DNA from: Planctomycetota bacterium | Lineage (GTDB): Bacteria > Planctomycetota > UBA8108 > SXIK01 | Direction of reading: 5' to 3' | Assembly: GCA_965223845.1 (NCBI GenBank) | Contig: CBDCXR010000004.1 | Coordinates: 2,784,001 to 2,848,000 of the forward strand | DNA length: 64,000 nucleotides | In this document: one piece after another, positions 41,478 through 48,879 of the stretch | Position numbering within the stretch: the first letter of the stretch is position 1 | Layout of the letters: every line of letters starts with the position of its first letter | Notes under the pieces: generated by a model | Told to the model about the DNA's origin: nothing | What the model saw: only the letters and a program-made list of their open reading frames with translations | The model's database searches: none | Translations under genes and position numbers: made by a program

Positions 41478-41494
41478 CACGAAGGGCGCGAAGG
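41478..41494 (+). repeat. REP-like repeat, left arm
   Basis: CACGAAGGGCGCGAAGG; 16/17 identical to the inverted copy at 42472-42488. Confidence 0.65.
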
Positions 41495-41517
41495 GGACGC
41501 GAAGGGAGACGAAGCAA

Positions 41518-41634
<117 letters not shown>

Positions 41635-41686
41635 AATGTGCGTGGGAGGGAGTGAAGAAAAGAGTCTTTGGGGCTTTTCGTGGAGT

Positions 41687-42385
41687 TCAATCCGGATAGT
41701 AGAGCCAGCGGCCGTTGCCGACGTACCAGTGAGACGTGTTCGGCGTCCAGACATGATACGAGACGTAGTAGCCGGCTCTACCGCTTGTGCGCGAAGGGTC
41801 GTAGTGGATTCGATCGCGCAGCTCCTTTCGAGTCGCCGGGAACCCGGATAGGTCTTCCGGGTAGTTTCCGGTCTTTGCGCTCGTGTCTTCCACGTATTCG
41901 ACTACGCGTTCTGCTTCCGCGTAGACCATCGCCCACTGGACCGCGAGATAGCCCGGCCATAGGATCGAAACGGACGCGACGGCGACGGCCGCTACGGCTC
42001 CGATCACACGGGTCGACCGCATCGGAGTGGCGAGCAGGAGTCCCGCGGGCAGGTTCGCAAAGAGACCGTTCGCGAGAAACCCGAGGGAAGCGACTGAGCT
42101 AACCGCGTGGTAGACGATCAGTCCGCCCGCTGCTTCCACCGGCACGATCACCGCGAAGGCGATTGTCAGAGGCGTTCGCGCGCAAGCGAGCGCGATGGCC
42201 GCGGGGAGACTCGGCACGAACCAGAGCCACGGTAGTGCATCCTCGCCCACCACGTCCTGCCGCGTCGCCTCGTCGAGCATTGCGAGGGCGCCTCCGCAGA
42301 CCGCGAAGTAGATCGACGCAACGGCGACTCGCCCGACAAAGAGGACCAGGTGCGGAGTTTCCTGACTGCCTCTGGTGTCACTCAT
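41687..42385 (-). CDS. Hypothetical membrane protein
   Basis: Several hydrophobic helices, then a soluble aromatic tail (KTGNYPEDLSGF...YYVSYHVW...WLYYPD). Confidence 0.65.
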   Translation of the reverse strand: MSDTRGSQETPHLVLFVGRVAVASIYFAVCGGALAMLDEATRQDVVGEDALPWLWFVPSLPAAIALACARTPLTIAFAVIVPVEAAGGLIVYHAVSSVASLGFLANGLFANLPAGLLLATPMRSTRVIGAVAAVAVASVSILWPGYLAVQWAMVYAEAERVVEYVEDTSAKTGNYPEDLSGFPATRKELRDRIHYDPSRTSGRAGYYVSYHVWTPNTSHWYVGNGRWLYYPD

Positions 42386-42550: not shown

Positions 42551-43783
42551 TCAGACCAGCCCGAGCCACCCATCCCAGCGCGCGATCGCCGCGAGTGCGA
42601 CGTGTGGATCCCCCACGTCCTCCGGCTCTAGGCGCTCGGTGAGCTCGACGACCACCGAGAGCGCGCCGTCGTAATCGAGATCGTCGTCGAACGCCGCCCG
42701 GACTCGTTCGTCCGCTTCGGCGATCCACTCCGGCTTCGCCGCGCTCTCGTCCGCGGGCGCCTTCTTCGCCTCGTCGAGGAGATACTCGCGAAAACCGAGA
42801 ACCGCGTTGACCCGGTCGCGCGAGCGGTCGAGGCACGCGTCGCCGAAGTCGATCGTGTCTCGATAGTGAGCCGAGAGCAGTGCGGCGCGAATCACGGCGC
42901 CGCGGAAGCCGTCATTGAGAAGCTCTCTCACCGTGACGACGTTGCGCGCGACGAGGCTCATCGGCTCGCCTTCGACGTAGACCTCGCCGGAATGGAGCCA
43001 GTAGCGCGCGAGCGGCTTGCCGGTGAGCGATTCGGCCTGCGCCGCTTCGCACTCGTGGTGCGGGAAGAGGTTGTCGTGCGCTCCCGTGTGAATGTCGAAC
43101 GCTCCCCCGAGATACTTCCGTCCCATGGCGACGCACTCGACGTGCCAGCCGGGGAAGCCGCGACCCCACGGGCTCGGCCAGTGCCGCTGGTGCTCGACAT
43201 CCGTCCTCCAGAGGTCGATATCGAGAACGTGTCGCTTCTCGGGATGCGCCGGGTTCCTCGATCCGCCGAGGATCGTCTCCAGCTCCGCGCGGCTCTTTCC
43301 CGTCAGGTGGCCGAACTGCGGCGCCTTGTCGACATCGAAGTAGACGTTTCCTCCTGCGGAGTACGTCAACCGTTTTTCCTCGAGCTGCTCGACGAGCGCG
43401 ATCATGTCGTCGATGTGCTCCCGCGCGCGCGGGTAGACCGTCGCGTCGAGGATGTGGAGCGCGCGCCGCTCCTCGTGGAACTTTCGCTCTTCGTCCTCGA
43501 TGAGCTCGGACGCGTGAAGACCCGTTCGCGCCGCGGCGATCTCGGTGAAGTCTTCCTCGAACTCGTTCAGGTGCCCGACGTCGGTGATGTTCATCACCTG
43601 CGTGACCTCGAGGCCATTCGCCTCGAGCGTTCGCCGGAGGACGTCGCCGAGGAGATACGAGCGAAACTTGCTCAGGTCGAGCGCCGCCTTCACGGTCGGC
43701 CCGCAGTGGTAGAGTCCCGCCCGTCCGGGCTCGAGCGGCGTGAACTCGCGCTTCGCTCCGGTTCGATCACTGAGCTTCAGCAT
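42551..43783 (-). CDS. Cysteinyl-tRNA synthetase-like protein with degenerate HIGH/KMSKS and no anticodon domain
   Basis: ATG 43783 with GGAGGAGG RBS. CGPTV, MNITDVGH, SPWGRGFPGWHVEC, FDIH, FPHHECE and HYR are present; HIGH is DLSK and KMSKS is PMSLV. Confidence 0.88.
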   Translation of the reverse strand: MLKLSDRTGAKREFTPLEPGRAGLYHCGPTVKAALDLSKFRSYLLGDVLRRTLEANGLEVTQVMNITDVGHLNEFEEDFTEIAAARTGLHASELIEDEERKFHEERRALHILDATVYPRAREHIDDMIALVEQLEEKRLTYSAGGNVYFDVDKAPQFGHLTGKSRAELETILGGSRNPAHPEKRHVLDIDLWRTDVEHQRHWPSPWGRGFPGWHVECVAMGRKYLGGAFDIHTGAHDNLFPHHECEAAQAESLTGKPLARYWLHSGEVYVEGEPMSLVARNVVTVRELLNDGFRGAVIRAALLSAHYRDTIDFGDACLDRSRDRVNAVLGFREYLLDEAKKAPADESAAKPEWIAEADERVRAAFDDDLDYDGALSVVVELTERLEPEDVGDPHVALAAIARWDGWLGLV

Positions 43784-43905
43784 CTCATCCCTCCTCCGGT
43801 CGTGCGCCTCCACCGCGACGACGCTCGCGACGTTTCTCCTCCCCCGCCCCCCGAAGATTCTGACGGTTTCCCGAGCGGACGGAAAGTCCCCGCCGACATC
43901 GGCTT

Positions 43906-45195
43906 TTACTCGGGCACGATCTTCATGTGTCGCTTCTTCCCCCGCCGGAGGAGGATCTCTCCGTCAACGAGATCCGCGGCCGTCACGACTCGATCCTCGT
44001 CCACCGACTCTCCGTTCAAGTAGAGCCCGCCCTGACGAGCCTGTCGACGCGCGTCGTTTCTCGAATCGCAGAGCTTCGAGCTCGCGCTCAAATCGACGAC
44101 GGAGATTCCTGACTCGAGATCGGCGCGCGGTACGGCGTAGGTCGGAACGGAGTCACCGCCTCCGGTCTTTCCGCCGCCGAAGAGCGCCCTCGCACCCTTT
44201 TGCGCGGCCTTCGCCTCCTCCTCGCCGTGCGTGAGACGCGTCGCCTCGAACGCGAGCACTTCCTTCGCCTTCCGGATGTCCGCGCCTTCGAGTCGATCGA
44301 GAGCTTCGATTTCCCCAAGGTCGAGAAACGTAAAGACACGCAGGTACCGCCCCGCGTCGCGGTCGTCGGTGTTGACCCAGAACTGGTAGTAGTCGTACGG
44401 GCTCGTACGCTCGGCGTCGAGCCAGATCGCCCCCTTCTCCGTCTTCCCCATCTTCTGACCGCTGGCGGTCGTGATGAGGGGCGTGGTGAGAGCGTGGGCG
44501 CGTCGACTGTCGGCGCGGCGAATGAGCTCGAGGCCCGCGACGATGTTCCCCCACTGATCACTCCCGCCCATCTGGAGCGCGCAGCCGTACTTCCTCGAGA
44601 GGACGAGGTAATCGTAGGCCTGGAGGAGGCTGTAGTTGAATTCGAGAAAGGACAGCCCCGCCGGCGACGCGAGTCGCAGCTTCACGCCCTCGGCCGCAAG
44701 CATGCGGTTCACGCTGAAGTGGCGTCCGACGTCGCGGAGGAAGTCGAGGTAGTGAAGGTCGAGCAGCCAGTCCGCGTTGTTGAGCACGATTCCGCGCTCT
44801 TCCTTCGGATCGTCGCTCGGCGCGAGGTCGAGGTAGCGCGAGATCTGCTCCCGCTGCGCGGCGAGATTCGCGGCGACGGCACCCTCGTCGAGGAGCTTTC
44901 GCATCTCCGTCTTGCCGCTCGGGTCGCCAACGAGACCCGTGCCGCCGCCCATGAGGACGATGGGGCGATGGCCTGATCGCTGGAGGTGAGCGAGAAGGAT
45001 GACCTGCACCAGGTTTCCGACGGTGAGGCTCGGCGCGGTCGGATCGAAGCCGATATAGGCCGTGACGCGCTCCTCCGCGAGCAGCTTCTCGAGCGGTCGC
45101 TGATCGGTCTCGTCGTCGCTCGTCTGATGGATGAGTCCGCGCTCGCGGAGAGCGCTCAGGAAATCGCTCACGGACTTCGCCTCGTTCGTGCTCAA
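43906..45195 (-). CDS. tyrS: Tyrosine--tRNA ligase
   Basis: YIGFDPTAPSL, GDPSGK, EFNYSLLQAYD, QMGGSDQWGN, KMGKT, S4-like C-terminus ending RRGKK. Confidence 0.96.
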   Translation of the reverse strand: MSTNEAKSVSDFLSALRERGLIHQTSDDETDQRPLEKLLAEERVTAYIGFDPTAPSLTVGNLVQVILLAHLQRSGHRPIVLMGGGTGLVGDPSGKTEMRKLLDEGAVAANLAAQREQISRYLDLAPSDDPKEERGIVLNNADWLLDLHYLDFLRDVGRHFSVNRMLAAEGVKLRLASPAGLSFLEFNYSLLQAYDYLVLSRKYGCALQMGGSDQWGNIVAGLELIRRADSRRAHALTTPLITTASGQKMGKTEKGAIWLDAERTSPYDYYQFWVNTDDRDAGRYLRVFTFLDLGEIEALDRLEGADIRKAKEVLAFEATRLTHGEEEAKAAQKGARALFGGGKTGGGDSVPTYAVPRADLESGISVVDLSASSKLCDSRNDARRQARQGGLYLNGESVDEDRVVTAADLVDGEILLRRGKKRHMKIVPE

Positions 45196-45596
45196 ACTAG
45201 TTCACTCCCGGATCCGCGCGACTCGGGCCACACTTGCGCGAGCTCTTCGAGCGCGCCGCAGACGAGCTCGGCCGCGTGAACCGAGTCGTCGTCGAGCCCG
45301 CCGGCGCGCGACGAGAGCTCTTCGACGTCGAGCGCGGCGCACTCGGCTCTGGTCCGTCCCACCAACCAGTCGGCGAGGATCGAACCGCAGACGATCGACG
45401 CAGCGCAGCCGTAGACCTGGTAGCGACAGTCCGCGACCTCGCCGCTCGGCCCCCACTGAACGTAGAGATCGATCAGGTCCCCACACCGATCACCCTCGAC
45501 GCGGATCTTGGCGTCCGGATCCGAAAGCACGCCGGCGCGCCTCGGACACGTAAGGTGTTCGTCGAAAGGATTCTTCTCGGGGTCGAGCGGGTCCAT
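45192..45596 (-). CDS. IscU/NifU N-terminal-like Fe-S scaffold protein
   Basis: H..CPRRAG, CGD, YGCAASIVCGS; the canonical third Cys (HC) is HA. Confidence 0.8.
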   Translation of the reverse strand: MDPLDPEKNPFDEHLTCPRRAGVLSDPDAKIRVEGDRCGDLIDLYVQWGPSGEVADCRYQVYGCAASIVCGSILADWLVGRTRAECAALDVEELSSRAGGLDDDSVHAAELVCGALEELAQVWPESRGSGSELV

Positions 45597-45617: not shown

Positions 45618-45935
45618 CTAAAGAAGCTCGTCGAGCTTGCTCTTATACTGCGACTTCGGATAGAGGCCGACGAGCTGATCGACGACCTCACCGCCCTTGA
45701 AGAGAAGCACGGTCGGAACGCTCATGATGCCGTACTTTCCGGCGGTGTCCTGCGCCTTGTCGATGTCGACCTTGCCGACCTTCGCCTTGCCGTTGTACTC
45801 GTCGGCCAGCTCGTCGACGATCGGGGAGAGCTGCTGACACGGCGGGCACCAAGTCGCGCCGAAATCTACGAGAACCGGCTGCTCCGCCTGGAGGACTTCC
45901 GTCTCGAAGTTGGTGTCGTCGAAATCGAGCGCCAT
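45618..45935 (-). CDS. trxA: Thioredoxin
   Basis: LVDFGATWCPPC and YGIMSVPTVLLFKGG. Confidence 0.93.
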   Translation of the reverse strand: MALDFDDTNFETEVLQAEQPVLVDFGATWCPPCQQLSPIVDELADEYNGKAKVGKVDIDKAQDTAGKYGIMSVPTVLLFKGGEVVDQLVGLYPKSQYKSKLDELL

Positions 45936-46266: not shown

Positions 46267-48879
46267 ATGAATCACGCCCGCGTCGATCGACCTCTCGCGT
46301 CCCGTCTCCGCTCCCTCCGCCGCAGGCCGAATCAGCCGGCCGCACGTTCGTTCGTGTTCCCTGCCATCGCAATCGTCGCGCTGGCGATCGGGACGGGCGG
46401 CGGCGGGCTCGAGGCCGGGCAAGACATCTTGGGGCTGGGCGGCGGGGCGTCGTCGTCGAAGGTGAAATGGACGTTGTCGGTCGAGCCGACGACCGCGGCT
46501 CCGGGGGACGAGGTGACCGTGAAGGCGGCGTATGATGTCCAGGCGAACTGGTACCTCTATGCCCCAGATCACGATCCAGAGAAGGGGCCGGGTCGCCCCC
46601 TCAGCTTTGCGGCCGGGCACACGTCGTTGTCGCCCGTCGGGGCCGTCCGGTTCCCGAGTCCAGGCGTCAAGCGTCAGGAGGACCTCGGCTGGGAGTTTCG
46701 AATTCTCTCCGGCGAAGGCGCCCTCGAGCAGACGTTTCGCGTGAACTCAGATGCGAGCCCCGGGGACGTCGCGATCGCGGTCAAGATCGAAGGACAGGCC
46801 TGCGACCCATCTCTCTGTATCGACCAATCTTTCGCTGATTCGGTAACTCTTGCCATCGCGACGGCGTCGACGACTTCCGACTCGGCGGCAGCCAGCGTAG
46901 TAGGTACGACGGGCGGTGACGAGAACGAAGGCACGCCGCCCGGTACGCCATCCGTTCTCGAGAGCCCACAAGGCTTGTTCCGTGGAGCCGATTCCACCAA
47001 GTCGCGCGCCTCGTGGCGCTTCGAGGTCGAACCCGCGACGGTGAATCGCGGCGAGACAATTACGATCGCCGCGCACTACAAGCTCGACCACGGTTGGCAT
47101 ATCTACTCGCCGGACTACAAGGGAATCGGAATTCCGACGGCGATCGGTGTCGCGAGCGATCCCACACTCGCGCGCTTCGGTAAGCCCACGTTTCCGCCCC
47201 CGAAGCTCGGAATGATGGCCGGCATGACGGAGCCTCAGCGATGGCTCGAAGGCGAGGGAACGATCCGGCAACGATTTACGGTGCCGCCCGCCGCGAGTCC
47301 CGGCCCGCTCGAGCTTTCCGTGAAAGTCGATTTCCTGACCTGCACGGAAACCCAGTGCCTCCTTCCAGAGGCGGCGTCGGACAGGCTGTCGGTCACCGTA
47401 TCGGACGCACCGCCGGTGCGAGTTCGCGGACTTCCGGCCGGCGACGACCTCGGGCCGGAAGACGCGCCCGCTCCTCCGCGGGCCGAGCCAGACGATGACG
47501 CGGACGAGGTGCCTCTCGGCGATCAGCCGCTCTGGCCATTCATGCTCGTCATGATCGGCGGCGGGCTGTTTACGCTCGTCATGCCGTGCACGTACCCCAT
47601 GATCCCGATCACGATTTCGTACTTTACGAAGCAGGCGGAAGCGAGAAGCGGATCCGTGCTCCCGCTCGCGCTCACGTACGGCGCGGGCATCGTCGTGATC
47701 TTCAGCGTCATCGGAGTGGCATTCGGAGAATCGATCATTCCGTTTGCTCAGTCGTGGCAGCTCAATTTCCTCTTCTTCCTGCTCTTCGTCGTGTTCGCGC
47801 TCGCGCTCTTCGGCATGATCAATCTCCGCCTCCCGGCGTCGTTTTCTAAGCTTGCGGGTCAAGCGTCTCAAAGACAGGGATATCTCGGCGTTTTCATCCT
47901 CGGCACGCTCCTCGTCGTAACGTCGTTCACGTGTACCGCGCCGATTCTCGGTGGACTGCTCTTCGGTGCCGCGGCGGGAGACGTGTCGACGGGTAGACTC
48001 CTCATGGGAATGAGCGTTTTCGGCGGAACCGTTGCCGCTCCGTTCGTGCTCCTCGCACTCTTTCCCGGTCGCGTTCAGAACTTGCCGAAAGCGGGCGAGT
48101 GGATGAACGTTCTCAAAGTGTCGCTCGGCTTCATTGAGCTCGCCGCCGCCGTAAAGTTTCTGTCGACGGCAGACCTGGGCCTCAAGCTCGGCCTTCTCCC
48201 GCGCGAGCTCTTCCTCGTGATCTGGGCCGCGATCGCCGCGGTCCTCGGCTTCTACTTGCTCAATTTCTTCCGCATGAAGACCGACAAGACGGAGTCCATC
48301 GGAGCGATCCGCATGCTGTCGGGGCTCGCGGCGCTCACGCTCTGCTTTTACTTCCTCGTCTGGCCGGTCGCGGGATTCAAGTTCGGCTGGGTCATGGCTT
48401 CGATTCTGCCTCCCTATTCCGCCGAGAAGCGGATCGACCTCGGTGGTGATGCTCCCGCGCCTGCGGGTGTTGACGCCGCGGCGAAAGAAGGGACGCCGTG
48501 GCCGATCGTGAAGGACGACCTCGCCGCAGGGCTCGAGCTCGCGAAGACGCTGGGAAAACCTGCTCTCATCAATTTCACGGGGCACACATGAACGAACTGC
48601 CGACTGATGGAAGTTTCCGTCTTCACGAAACCTGAGATCACGGCGCTTCTCGCGCAGTACGTCGAGGTTCGTCTCCACGTCGACGACCCCGATTCACCGG
48701 AAAAGACGAAGCGGCACCTCGCCTACCGGAATCGACTCGTACAGTCCGTGGCGCTCCCGATCTACGCGATCGTCGAGCCCGACGAACCCGAGACGCTCCT
48801 CAAGCGGTTCGACGGCGCGGACATTTCGGGCAAACGGTTCGGCGCGTTTCTGGAGAACTACCTTCGGAAGCGTGGTTAG
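46267..48879 (+). CDS. dsbD: DsbD-family thiol:disulfide interchange protein, probable selenoprotein (UGA at 48589-48591)
   Basis: Two DsbD-N-like domains (CDPSLC, CTETQC); transmembrane domain (MPCTYPMIP, SFTCTAP, PKAGEWM); thioredoxin domain INFTGHT-TGA-TNCRLME continuing in frame to 48879. Confidence 0.85.
48606..48621 (+). promoter_or_regulatory. Candidate bacterial SECIS hairpin
   Basis: GATGGA-AGTT-TCCGTC: 6-bp stem with a GU-containing tetraloop 20 nt after the UGA. Confidence 0.6.

Follow-up and report, generated by a model that had tools for sequence, protein, structure and literature searches.

What role is left for a protein that retains the cysteine pocket of cysteinyl-tRNA synthetase (CysRS, encoded by cysS) when the motifs for adenosine triphosphate (ATP) have changed and the anticodon domain is missing? 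The question is raised by a gene at positions 42551–43783 on the minus strand of a 64,000-nucleotide stretch of contig CBDCXR010000004.1 (assembly GCA_965223845.1) from a Planctomycetota bacterium; the whole stretch is referred to here as the window and the product of the gene as P0001. In a preliminary description, made from the sequence, P0001 was held to be a CysRS paralogue other than an ordinary ligase. Based on the analysis reported here, the gene is best explained as a neofunctionalised paralogue of the planctomycetal CysRS, whose product would no longer be a tRNA synthetase. It is very probable, in our judgment, that P0001 is functional and is not the CysRS that charges tRNA. P0001 is not the CysRS of the cell because a canonical cysS is present elsewhere in the genome, which measures 7.93 Mb and is 91.7% complete. 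The protein encoded by that gene (G000:C4:1008394–1009845) is 483 amino acids long, has an anticodon domain as well as HIGN and KMSKS, and shares 44% identity with P0001. The identification of P0001 as an ordinary CysRS was rejected on its motifs, the missing domain, a sub-threshold model score and the true cysS elsewhere, in agreement with the earlier statement.

The open reading frame is intact (410 codons plus a stop), its ATG start agrees with the N-termini of aligned homologues, and the ribosome-binding site noted earlier was found again as GGAGGAGGG, 5 nucleotides before the ATG. P0001 comprises a Rossmann catalytic domain, a CP insertion, an SC-fold and a helical bundle, without an anticodon-binding domain. 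The sole Pfam domain detected is PF01406 (tRNA-synt_1e; 264.6 bits, E value 1.6e-78, residues 14–321), for which the gathering cut-off is 27. The scores with the more specific models are 302.8 bits for the cysS equivalog TIGR00435, under the cut-off of 340, 276.6 bits for NF011108, where the cut-off of 780 is not reached, and 216.2 bits for the MshC equivalog TIGR03447, under the cut-off of 485.1.

A search of 5.8 billion proteins recovered 82 further clusters of the same family (320–467 amino acids, 46–65% identity), below which, in the same search, stood ordinary CysRS of 460–500 amino acids with 42–48% identity. The source name "cysteinyl-tRNA synthetase" is attached to at least 20 of the family clusters, others being named "hypothetical protein"; the synthetase name is misleading and can skew marker-gene counts of cysS. 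Residue counts, charges and entropies given below refer to 76 of the 83 family clusters (seven shorter than 400 amino acids were omitted) and to a canonical set of 36 sequences, consisting of 35 of 37 hits (two shorter than 460 amino acids were omitted) and the CysRS of the same genome. A 75-sequence family alignment additionally omits P0005 (467 amino acids). In the alignment with the CysRS of its own genome, P0001 falls short of the canonical C-terminus by about 64 residues, so that the missing anticodon domain of the preliminary description is borne out. The domain is absent from all members of the family, 65 of the 76 ending no more than one residue from the same point.

P0001 was aligned to the E. 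coli CysRS (PDB: 1LI5) and to the canonical CysRS of its own genome. In this alignment C27, C217, H242 and E246 of P0001 correspond to E. coli C28, C209, H234 and E238, of which H234 and E238 are taken by us to be zinc ligands. The cysteines C28 and C209 are named as the zinc cysteines of CysRS in one report (PMC5660078). The zinc and cysteine pocket is unchanged in 76 of 76 family members, and the earlier claim that this site is kept can be extended to the whole family. Eight pocket positions (C27, G28, T67, W213, H214, C217, H242 and E246) have an entropy of 0 bits in the family and in the canonical set alike. No variation was seen in the family at W262 and H264, in the strand before the KMSKS loop, or at H232 and G234, and the 61 invariant columns of the 75-sequence alignment include all of the pocket residues. 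The ribose-binding acid, an aspartate which class I synthetases use for the ribose, and the adenine-binding strand are both retained.

The motifs for the ATP phosphates follow another course. The alignments confirm that HIGH is replaced by DLSK in P0001, at the place of HIGN in the canonical enzyme of the genome, and KMSKS by PMSLV, in which both lysines are lost. The statement that GGGxD had become TGAHD is correct for one glycine and otherwise overstated; the canonical CysRS of the genome itself reads HTGGED at this place and E. coli HGGGSD, and the Asp is kept in P0001. The third Gly of GGG is changed to Ala, Thr or Ser in 67 of the 76 members. Similarly, the assertion that both ATP motifs are lacking describes P0001 and not the family, in which some clades read HIGK and AMSKS and neither the ribose-binding acid nor the adenine strand has been given up; DLSK and PMSLV are, on the sequences compared, the far end of a spectrum.

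The general form of the HIGH equivalent in the family is [N/H/D..]-[I/L/V]-x-K. Its first position is Asn in 44 members, His in 21 and another residue in 11, the first His thus being lost in 55 of 76, while the Gly at the third position is replaced in most members, the residues found there being Ser, Ala, Gly, Asp, Asn, Tyr, His or Glu. The first Lys of KMSKS is never Lys (0 of 76), and at the second are Arg (45), Leu (15, including P0001), Lys (8) or other residues (8). Orthologues sharing the same substitutions, which the preliminary description had proposed to collect, therefore exist for the first Lys in all cases and not for the motifs as a whole, given the one clade with HIGK and AMSK[A/S] and the frequent Arg at the second Lys. 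Over six ATP-phosphate positions (HIGH-1, HIGH-3, K266, K269, S270 and G227) the entropy is 1.3–3.1 bits, in the 49th–95th percentile of the protein, whereas the same positions are near-invariant in the 36 canonical CysRS. In addition, both lysines of the KIIK motif are lost, and a deletion of six residues follows NITDVGHL, before that helix.

Features associated with tRNA have changed as well. In CysRS, the tRNA is held by the SC-fold and the helical bundle. When net charge is averaged over the 410 positions that both groups have in common, the family is at –16.8 and the canonical set at –6.8, a difference of about 10 units towards the acidic side, and P0001 itself has –25; the SC-fold carries +0.4 versus +3.6, and the helical bundle –7.8 versus –3.2. 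In the CP domain, the canonical N171 is replaced with Lys, Arg or another residue, and the conserved AGAR motif has lost its AG. The overall fold is nevertheless that of CysRS in the AlphaFold2 model built from the 75 family sequences (pLDDT 90.3, pTM 0.91), for which Foldseek returned as best matches the CysRS structures 8qhp and 1u0b (TM 0.85–0.86), followed by MshC (TM 0.81–0.83); CysRS structures together span TM 0.83–0.86.

The family is confined and conserved. In a sample of 201 genomes from the phylum, matches with at least 49% identity were restricted to four genomes of the same order and found in 0 of the 197 others; extra matches in G036, G116, G145 and G166 are split or contig-edge pieces with no more than 47% identity, which are of the canonical type or undecidable. 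Among the matches listed by a contig scan, 79 were canonical CysRS and one (55% identity) belonged to the family, and the scan is uninformative on distribution. Within the order the paralogue was found in 20 of 21 genomes, the exception, G209, being 80% complete, and a second match of the canonical type in 16 of 21, including 9 of 9 genomes with at least 90% completeness. Among orthologues whose pairwise dS is 0.07–1.0, the ratio of nonsynonymous to synonymous substitution (dN/dS, omega) is 0.07–0.16, compared with 0.04–0.22 for the neighboring tyrS. On these sequence comparisons the paralogue is under purifying selection, and not in decay. The findings which the preliminary description had named as contrary to it, a sole cysS or random decay among orthologues, were not made, since the genome has another cysS and the orthologues combine low omega with a pocket constant in 76 of 76.

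In phylogenetic trees all of the paralogues included group together (SH-aLRT 100), and the stem of their clade is long, at 0.44–0.54 substitutions per site. The trees, which are quick searches with SH-aLRT support only, contain 25 and 18 family sequences picked for spread. When outgroups from 16 further lineages are included, this clade is nested in the radiation of planctomycete CysRS, within an unresolved group to which the canonical clade of the order also belongs, in a tree whose archaeal root is not clean and which, like the other, is without MshC sequences. This placement is read as a duplication inside the phylum followed by fast divergence. A separate observation concerns genus g3 of family f3 (L058–L060; G216, G215 and G213), whose "canonical" CysRS stands apart from the other canonical CysRS of the order and groups, on a long branch in one tree, with enzymes of the Phycisphaerae type; this suggests that a foreign cysS may have replaced the original one in a genus whose paralogue still reads HIGK and AMSKS.

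P0001 and the canonical CysRS (1LI5/1U0B; TIGR00435) resemble each other in fold, sequence, pocket, ribose-binding acid, adenine strand and planctomycete descent, and differ in the motifs, the KIIK lysines, the deletion, the anticodon domain, the acidity and the coexistence with a true cysS. Because the pocket is invariant, the activation residues drift, the tRNA-reading domain and the positive surface are lost, and purifying selection persists, we propose that P0001 would bind cysteine on zinc without forming Cys-AMP or Cys-tRNA. Tentatively, and with something less than even confidence, P0001 is regarded as a non-aminoacylating, cysteine-binding derivative of CysRS, which may be either a sensor resembling HisZ or an ATP-independent enzyme. 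HisZ is a paralogue of HisRS and the regulatory subunit of ATP phosphoribosyltransferase; it has lost aminoacylation and the anticodon domain and has kept the amino-acid site for sensing. The likeness, a pocket kept and catalytic motifs lost, is one of logic only and not of descent, since HisZ is a class II protein with a partner, HisG, and P0001 belongs to class I. The pattern by which a pseudo-synthetase would be recognized, i.e., a ligand pocket at 0 bits versus catalytic motifs at 1.3–3.1 bits, is the one found in the family.

In the mechanism that we prefer, L-cysteine would be bound on the zinc, possibly along with an adenosine-containing moiety. There would be no canonical ATP activation of the cysteine and no binding of tRNA along the canonical surface; P0001 would instead sense or present cysteine as a pseudo-synthetase, after the logic of HisZ, and act on a partner. 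The same anatomy might alternatively support an ATP-independent reaction that uses the zinc-activated thiolate of the bound cysteine. Should this be the case, which we put forward with due hesitation, the family might represent the first pseudo-synthetase derived from the class I CysRS, a zinc-dependent cysteine receptor without ATP or tRNA that would serve as an ATP-independent enzyme or as a regulatory subunit by which a partner learns the level of free cysteine, and might provide one order of the Planctomycetota with a layer of cysteine or thiol homeostasis peculiar to that lineage. Synthetase paralogues outside translation, among them HisZ, MshC, YadB, the cyclodipeptide synthases (CDPSs) and the amino acid:carrier-protein ligases, have repeatedly revealed new biochemistry. 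To let the class I signature motifs drift is unusual among them, and a class I fold that keeps its amino-acid site while HIGH and KMSKS do so is rare. The family is conserved and easily expressed and has the canonical CysRS as an in-genome control, so that a cysteine pocket working without ATP or tRNA is directly testable. No paper on this family was found in the open-access literature searched, and it appears to be undescribed; a review (PMC9437257) names only MshC and CysRS* as CysRS paralogues.

Several observations weigh against the sensor or ATP-independent enzyme proposed here. The fourth position of HIGH (K39) is Lys in 96% of the family and Lys or Arg in 76 of 76 members, R41 is invariant, and 53 of 76 have Arg (45) or Lys (8) at the second Lys of KMSKS. 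One clade (genus g3, family f3) reads HIGK and AMSK[A/S]. It is thus possible, judging from these residues, that the phosphate site has been rewired. Nine family-specific conserved switches (K39, N73, F75, R121, I189, R193, V218, A250 and L258) point to a new constraint that a sensor arising by pure loss of function need not have. By language-model features the nearest ESM Atlas clusters are those of MshC (0.97), and from the gene context of the window and the orthologous loci no partner protein emerged.

Several of these observations are the ground for the most serious alternative, that of a rewired ATP- or nucleoside triphosphate-dependent cysteine ligase with an acceptor other than tRNA, similar to MshC, in which adenylation would proceed via the altered site (K39, R41 and Arg or Lys at 277–280) and cysteine would be transferred to the amine of a small molecule or protein, e.g., for a low-molecular-weight thiol. 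We regard it as rather unlikely, though deserving of attention. MshC keeps both class I motifs. Like P0001, it comprises about 410 amino acids, is paralogous to CysRS and has no anticodon domain (3C8Z and 8HFM; TIGR03447). The retention of the adenine strand and of the ribose-binding acid in the family would suit a ligase. Some ArgRS without KMSKS compensate by a Lys near HIGH, although this was not found in the literature searched. The MshC reaction, an ATP-dependent ligation of cysteine to GlcN-Ins, belongs to mycothiol synthesis (PMC9437257), and a mycothiol pathway was rejected here, as the best matches in the genome score 157 for MshA (cut-off 462.5), 47.5 for MshB (224.35) and 37.3 for MshD (163.1); in a control, one of 14 genomes exceeded the cut-off for each of these families. 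A rewired active site would be fixed, whereas the ATP-motif positions of the family drift between clades, with the HIGH Gly turned into Asp, Asn, Tyr, His or Glu in some, the first His mostly lost, the first KMSKS Lys gone throughout and, in P0001, a Leu at the second. The MshC model score is below cut-off, neither a conserved acceptor-making neighbor nor a fused domain was seen in the family, other CysRS-derived fusion proteins retain both motifs, and the paralogues branch within the planctomycete CysRS, in trees without MshC.

The preliminary description had suggested a cysteine sensor or carrier, or a transferase or hydrolase using Cys-tRNA. The non-canonical character common to these roles stands, and the Cys-tRNA part has become weaker. 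In a Cys-tRNA-dependent transferase or deacylase, after the logic of the CDPSs, the zinc pocket would accommodate the cysteinyl moiety of Cys-tRNA, and the activation motifs would be dispensable. CDPSs are class I synthetase-like proteins that use aminoacyl-tRNA; they derive from class Ic enzymes similar to TyrRS or TrpRS and have basic patches for binding tRNA. They share with P0001 a class I Rossmann fold without functional HIGH and KMSKS, but P0001 derives from CysRS, keeps the zinc site and is strongly acidic. The positive charge lost in the SC-fold and helical bundle (as net charge only), the missing anticodon domain and the lost conservation in the CP domain (N171 and the AG of AGAR) make such an enzyme improbable. 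A YbaK-type protein (PF04073) was found in 0 of 4 genomes, those being the window genome and three family relatives, which would be consistent with deacylation by the paralogue; PF04073 occurs, however, beside the paralogue in 12 of 14 f3 genomes. The replacement of YbaK by the paralogue was set aside, as the two distributions are not complementary.

A dedicated cysteine persulfide synthase (CPERS) was also considered, since, according to PMC5660078, the CPERS activity of CysRS enzymes does not depend on aminoacylation; it requires K73, K76, K266 and K269, and the zinc cysteines are dispensable for it. The thiol- and Fe-S-related neighbors (thioredoxin, NifU-like and DsbD-like) would fit, although this neighborhood is a shared synteny in which the orientation of the paralogue varies. 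In P0001 the four lysines are F79, I82, P274 and L277; three are lost throughout the family and at the fourth, K269, just 8 of 76 members have Lys, while the zinc ligands are invariant, i.e., the opposite of the CPERS pattern, and such a role is very improbable.

In the Desulfobacterales a second cysS, CysRS*, is described in PMC5389517 as having CP1 changes and no anticodon domain, as being linked to selC* tRNA-Cys(UCA) and selB*, and as the proposed synthetase of that tRNA. That P0001 would similarly charge a special tRNA without the GCA anticodon is barely credible in spite of the common lack of the domain, because its activation motifs are degenerate and ARAGORN found no tRNA gene either in the window or in any of 18 orthologous loci; the genome as a whole has a single ordinary tRNA-Cys (GCA, U73) and a single tRNA-Sec, with G73, besides two CUA calls that pair poorly. 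No tRNA of the selC* kind is among them, and no selB-like gene was noted beside the paralogue (selB* was not searched for). The ARAGORN calls at G000:C4:1643846–1643919 and 6791124–6791203 are the CUA "tRNA-Pyl" with mismatched stems, which are likely false positives, and the call at 7438635–7438732 is the 98-nucleotide tRNA-Sec. Finally, a functionless decaying duplicate, for which the degenerate signature motifs and the scores below equivalog cut-offs could speak, is hardly to be believed, given that 20 of the 21 genomes in the order preserve the frame, that omega values resemble those of tyrS, and that the family shows 61 invariant columns and nine conserved substitutions of its own.

Fusion proteins provide a further comparison. 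A search of longer proteins for fused forms of the paralogue gave nothing above 43% identity. Many proteins of 720–900 amino acids (P0124–P0240), many of them labeled Chloroflexota, carry a family-2 glycosyltransferase (GT2; PF00535) fused to the catalytic domain of CysRS, and a few others join CysRS to a PALP domain (PF00291); these fusion proteins may ligate cysteine in pathways that make glycoside thiols. All 10 of the 10 CysRS-GT2 proteins inspected retain H[IL]GN and KMAKS, and since these fusions keep the motifs, their loss is unusual among CysRS-derived proteins.

The positions of the motifs and of the neighboring genes are compiled in Table 1.

Table 1. Features of the paralogue gene and its surroundings, in window coordinates
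Feature	Position	Strand	Evidence or remark
CysRS-like paralogue coding sequence (P0001)	42551..43783	-	Open reading frame, Pfam/NCBIfam scores, alignment to E. coli CysRS
Shine-Dalgarno-like GGAGGAGGG	43789..43797	-	5 nt upstream of ATG at 43783; direct sequence reading
C27 codon, first Zn ligand (CGPT), = E. coli C28	43703..43705	-	Alignment; invariant in family and canonical set
D36-L37-S38-K39, HIGH equivalent (E. coli H37-H40)	43667..43678	-	Alignment
C217 codon (WHVEC), second Zn ligand, = E. coli C209	43133..43135	-	Alignment; invariant
H232-T-G-A-H-D237, = HGGGSD in E. coli, HTGGED in own canonical CysRS	43073..43090	-	Alignment
H242-H-E-C-E246 (FPHHECE), putative Zn ligands H242 and E246 = E. 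coli H234, E238	43046..43060	-	Alignment; invariant
P274-M-S-L-V278, KMSKS equivalent (E. coli K266-MSKS)	42950..42964	-	Alignment; both lysines lost in P0001
tyrS, the only TyrRS of the genome, directly upstream	43906..45195	-	122-nt gap to paralogue ATG
NifU_N-like protein (55.7 bits)	45192..45596	-	Overlaps tyrS start by 4 nt
Thioredoxin	45618..45935	-	Upstream of tyrS and NifU_N-like gene
DsbD-like thiol:disulfide interchange membrane protein, divergent	46267..48591	+	
Predicted membrane protein, 232 amino acids, just downstream of paralogue	41687..42385	-	No Pfam match

The order thioredoxin, NifU and tyrS recurs in most orthologous loci, NifU being undetected in 3 of 10 f3 loci, and a TyrRS gene lies no more than 5 kb from the paralogue in 16 of 19 loci. 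The 10 f3 loci have the same order with a gap of about 17–37 nucleotides between tyrS and the paralogue, and the nuoH-N cluster converges from the other side, so that the paralogue is flanked by tyrS and the nuoN end of that cluster (confirmed with Pfam in L073). The paralogue and tyrS point the same way in the window and the 10 f3 loci and converge in four loci; in one locus they are 4.7 kb apart, and in another they are not linked. The position of the paralogue is read as inherited synteny and not as the signal of an operon. Since co-transcription with tyrS is not conserved, no function was drawn from the gene order. The stretch separating tyrS from the paralogue showed no convincing terminator or promoter, and no counterpart of the 232-residue membrane protein was found among 18 orthologous loci.

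Some minor observations may be added. The upstream neighbors specific to f2 resemble a radical-SAM protein by their Cys motif, as judged by eye. The canonical cysS is followed, after about 560 bp, by the single tRNA-Tyr gene of the genome (G000:C4:1010409–1010492), while the paralogue has tyrS as its neighbor; this crosswise proximity is probably a coincidence. Between the GDSL/FG-GAP gene and the gene of the 232-residue membrane protein, at approximately 41480–41640 of the window, the translated frames give runs such as SLTHSL..., SLSLSL and ERERER, which points to a short tandem repeat of purine- or pyrimidine-rich units.

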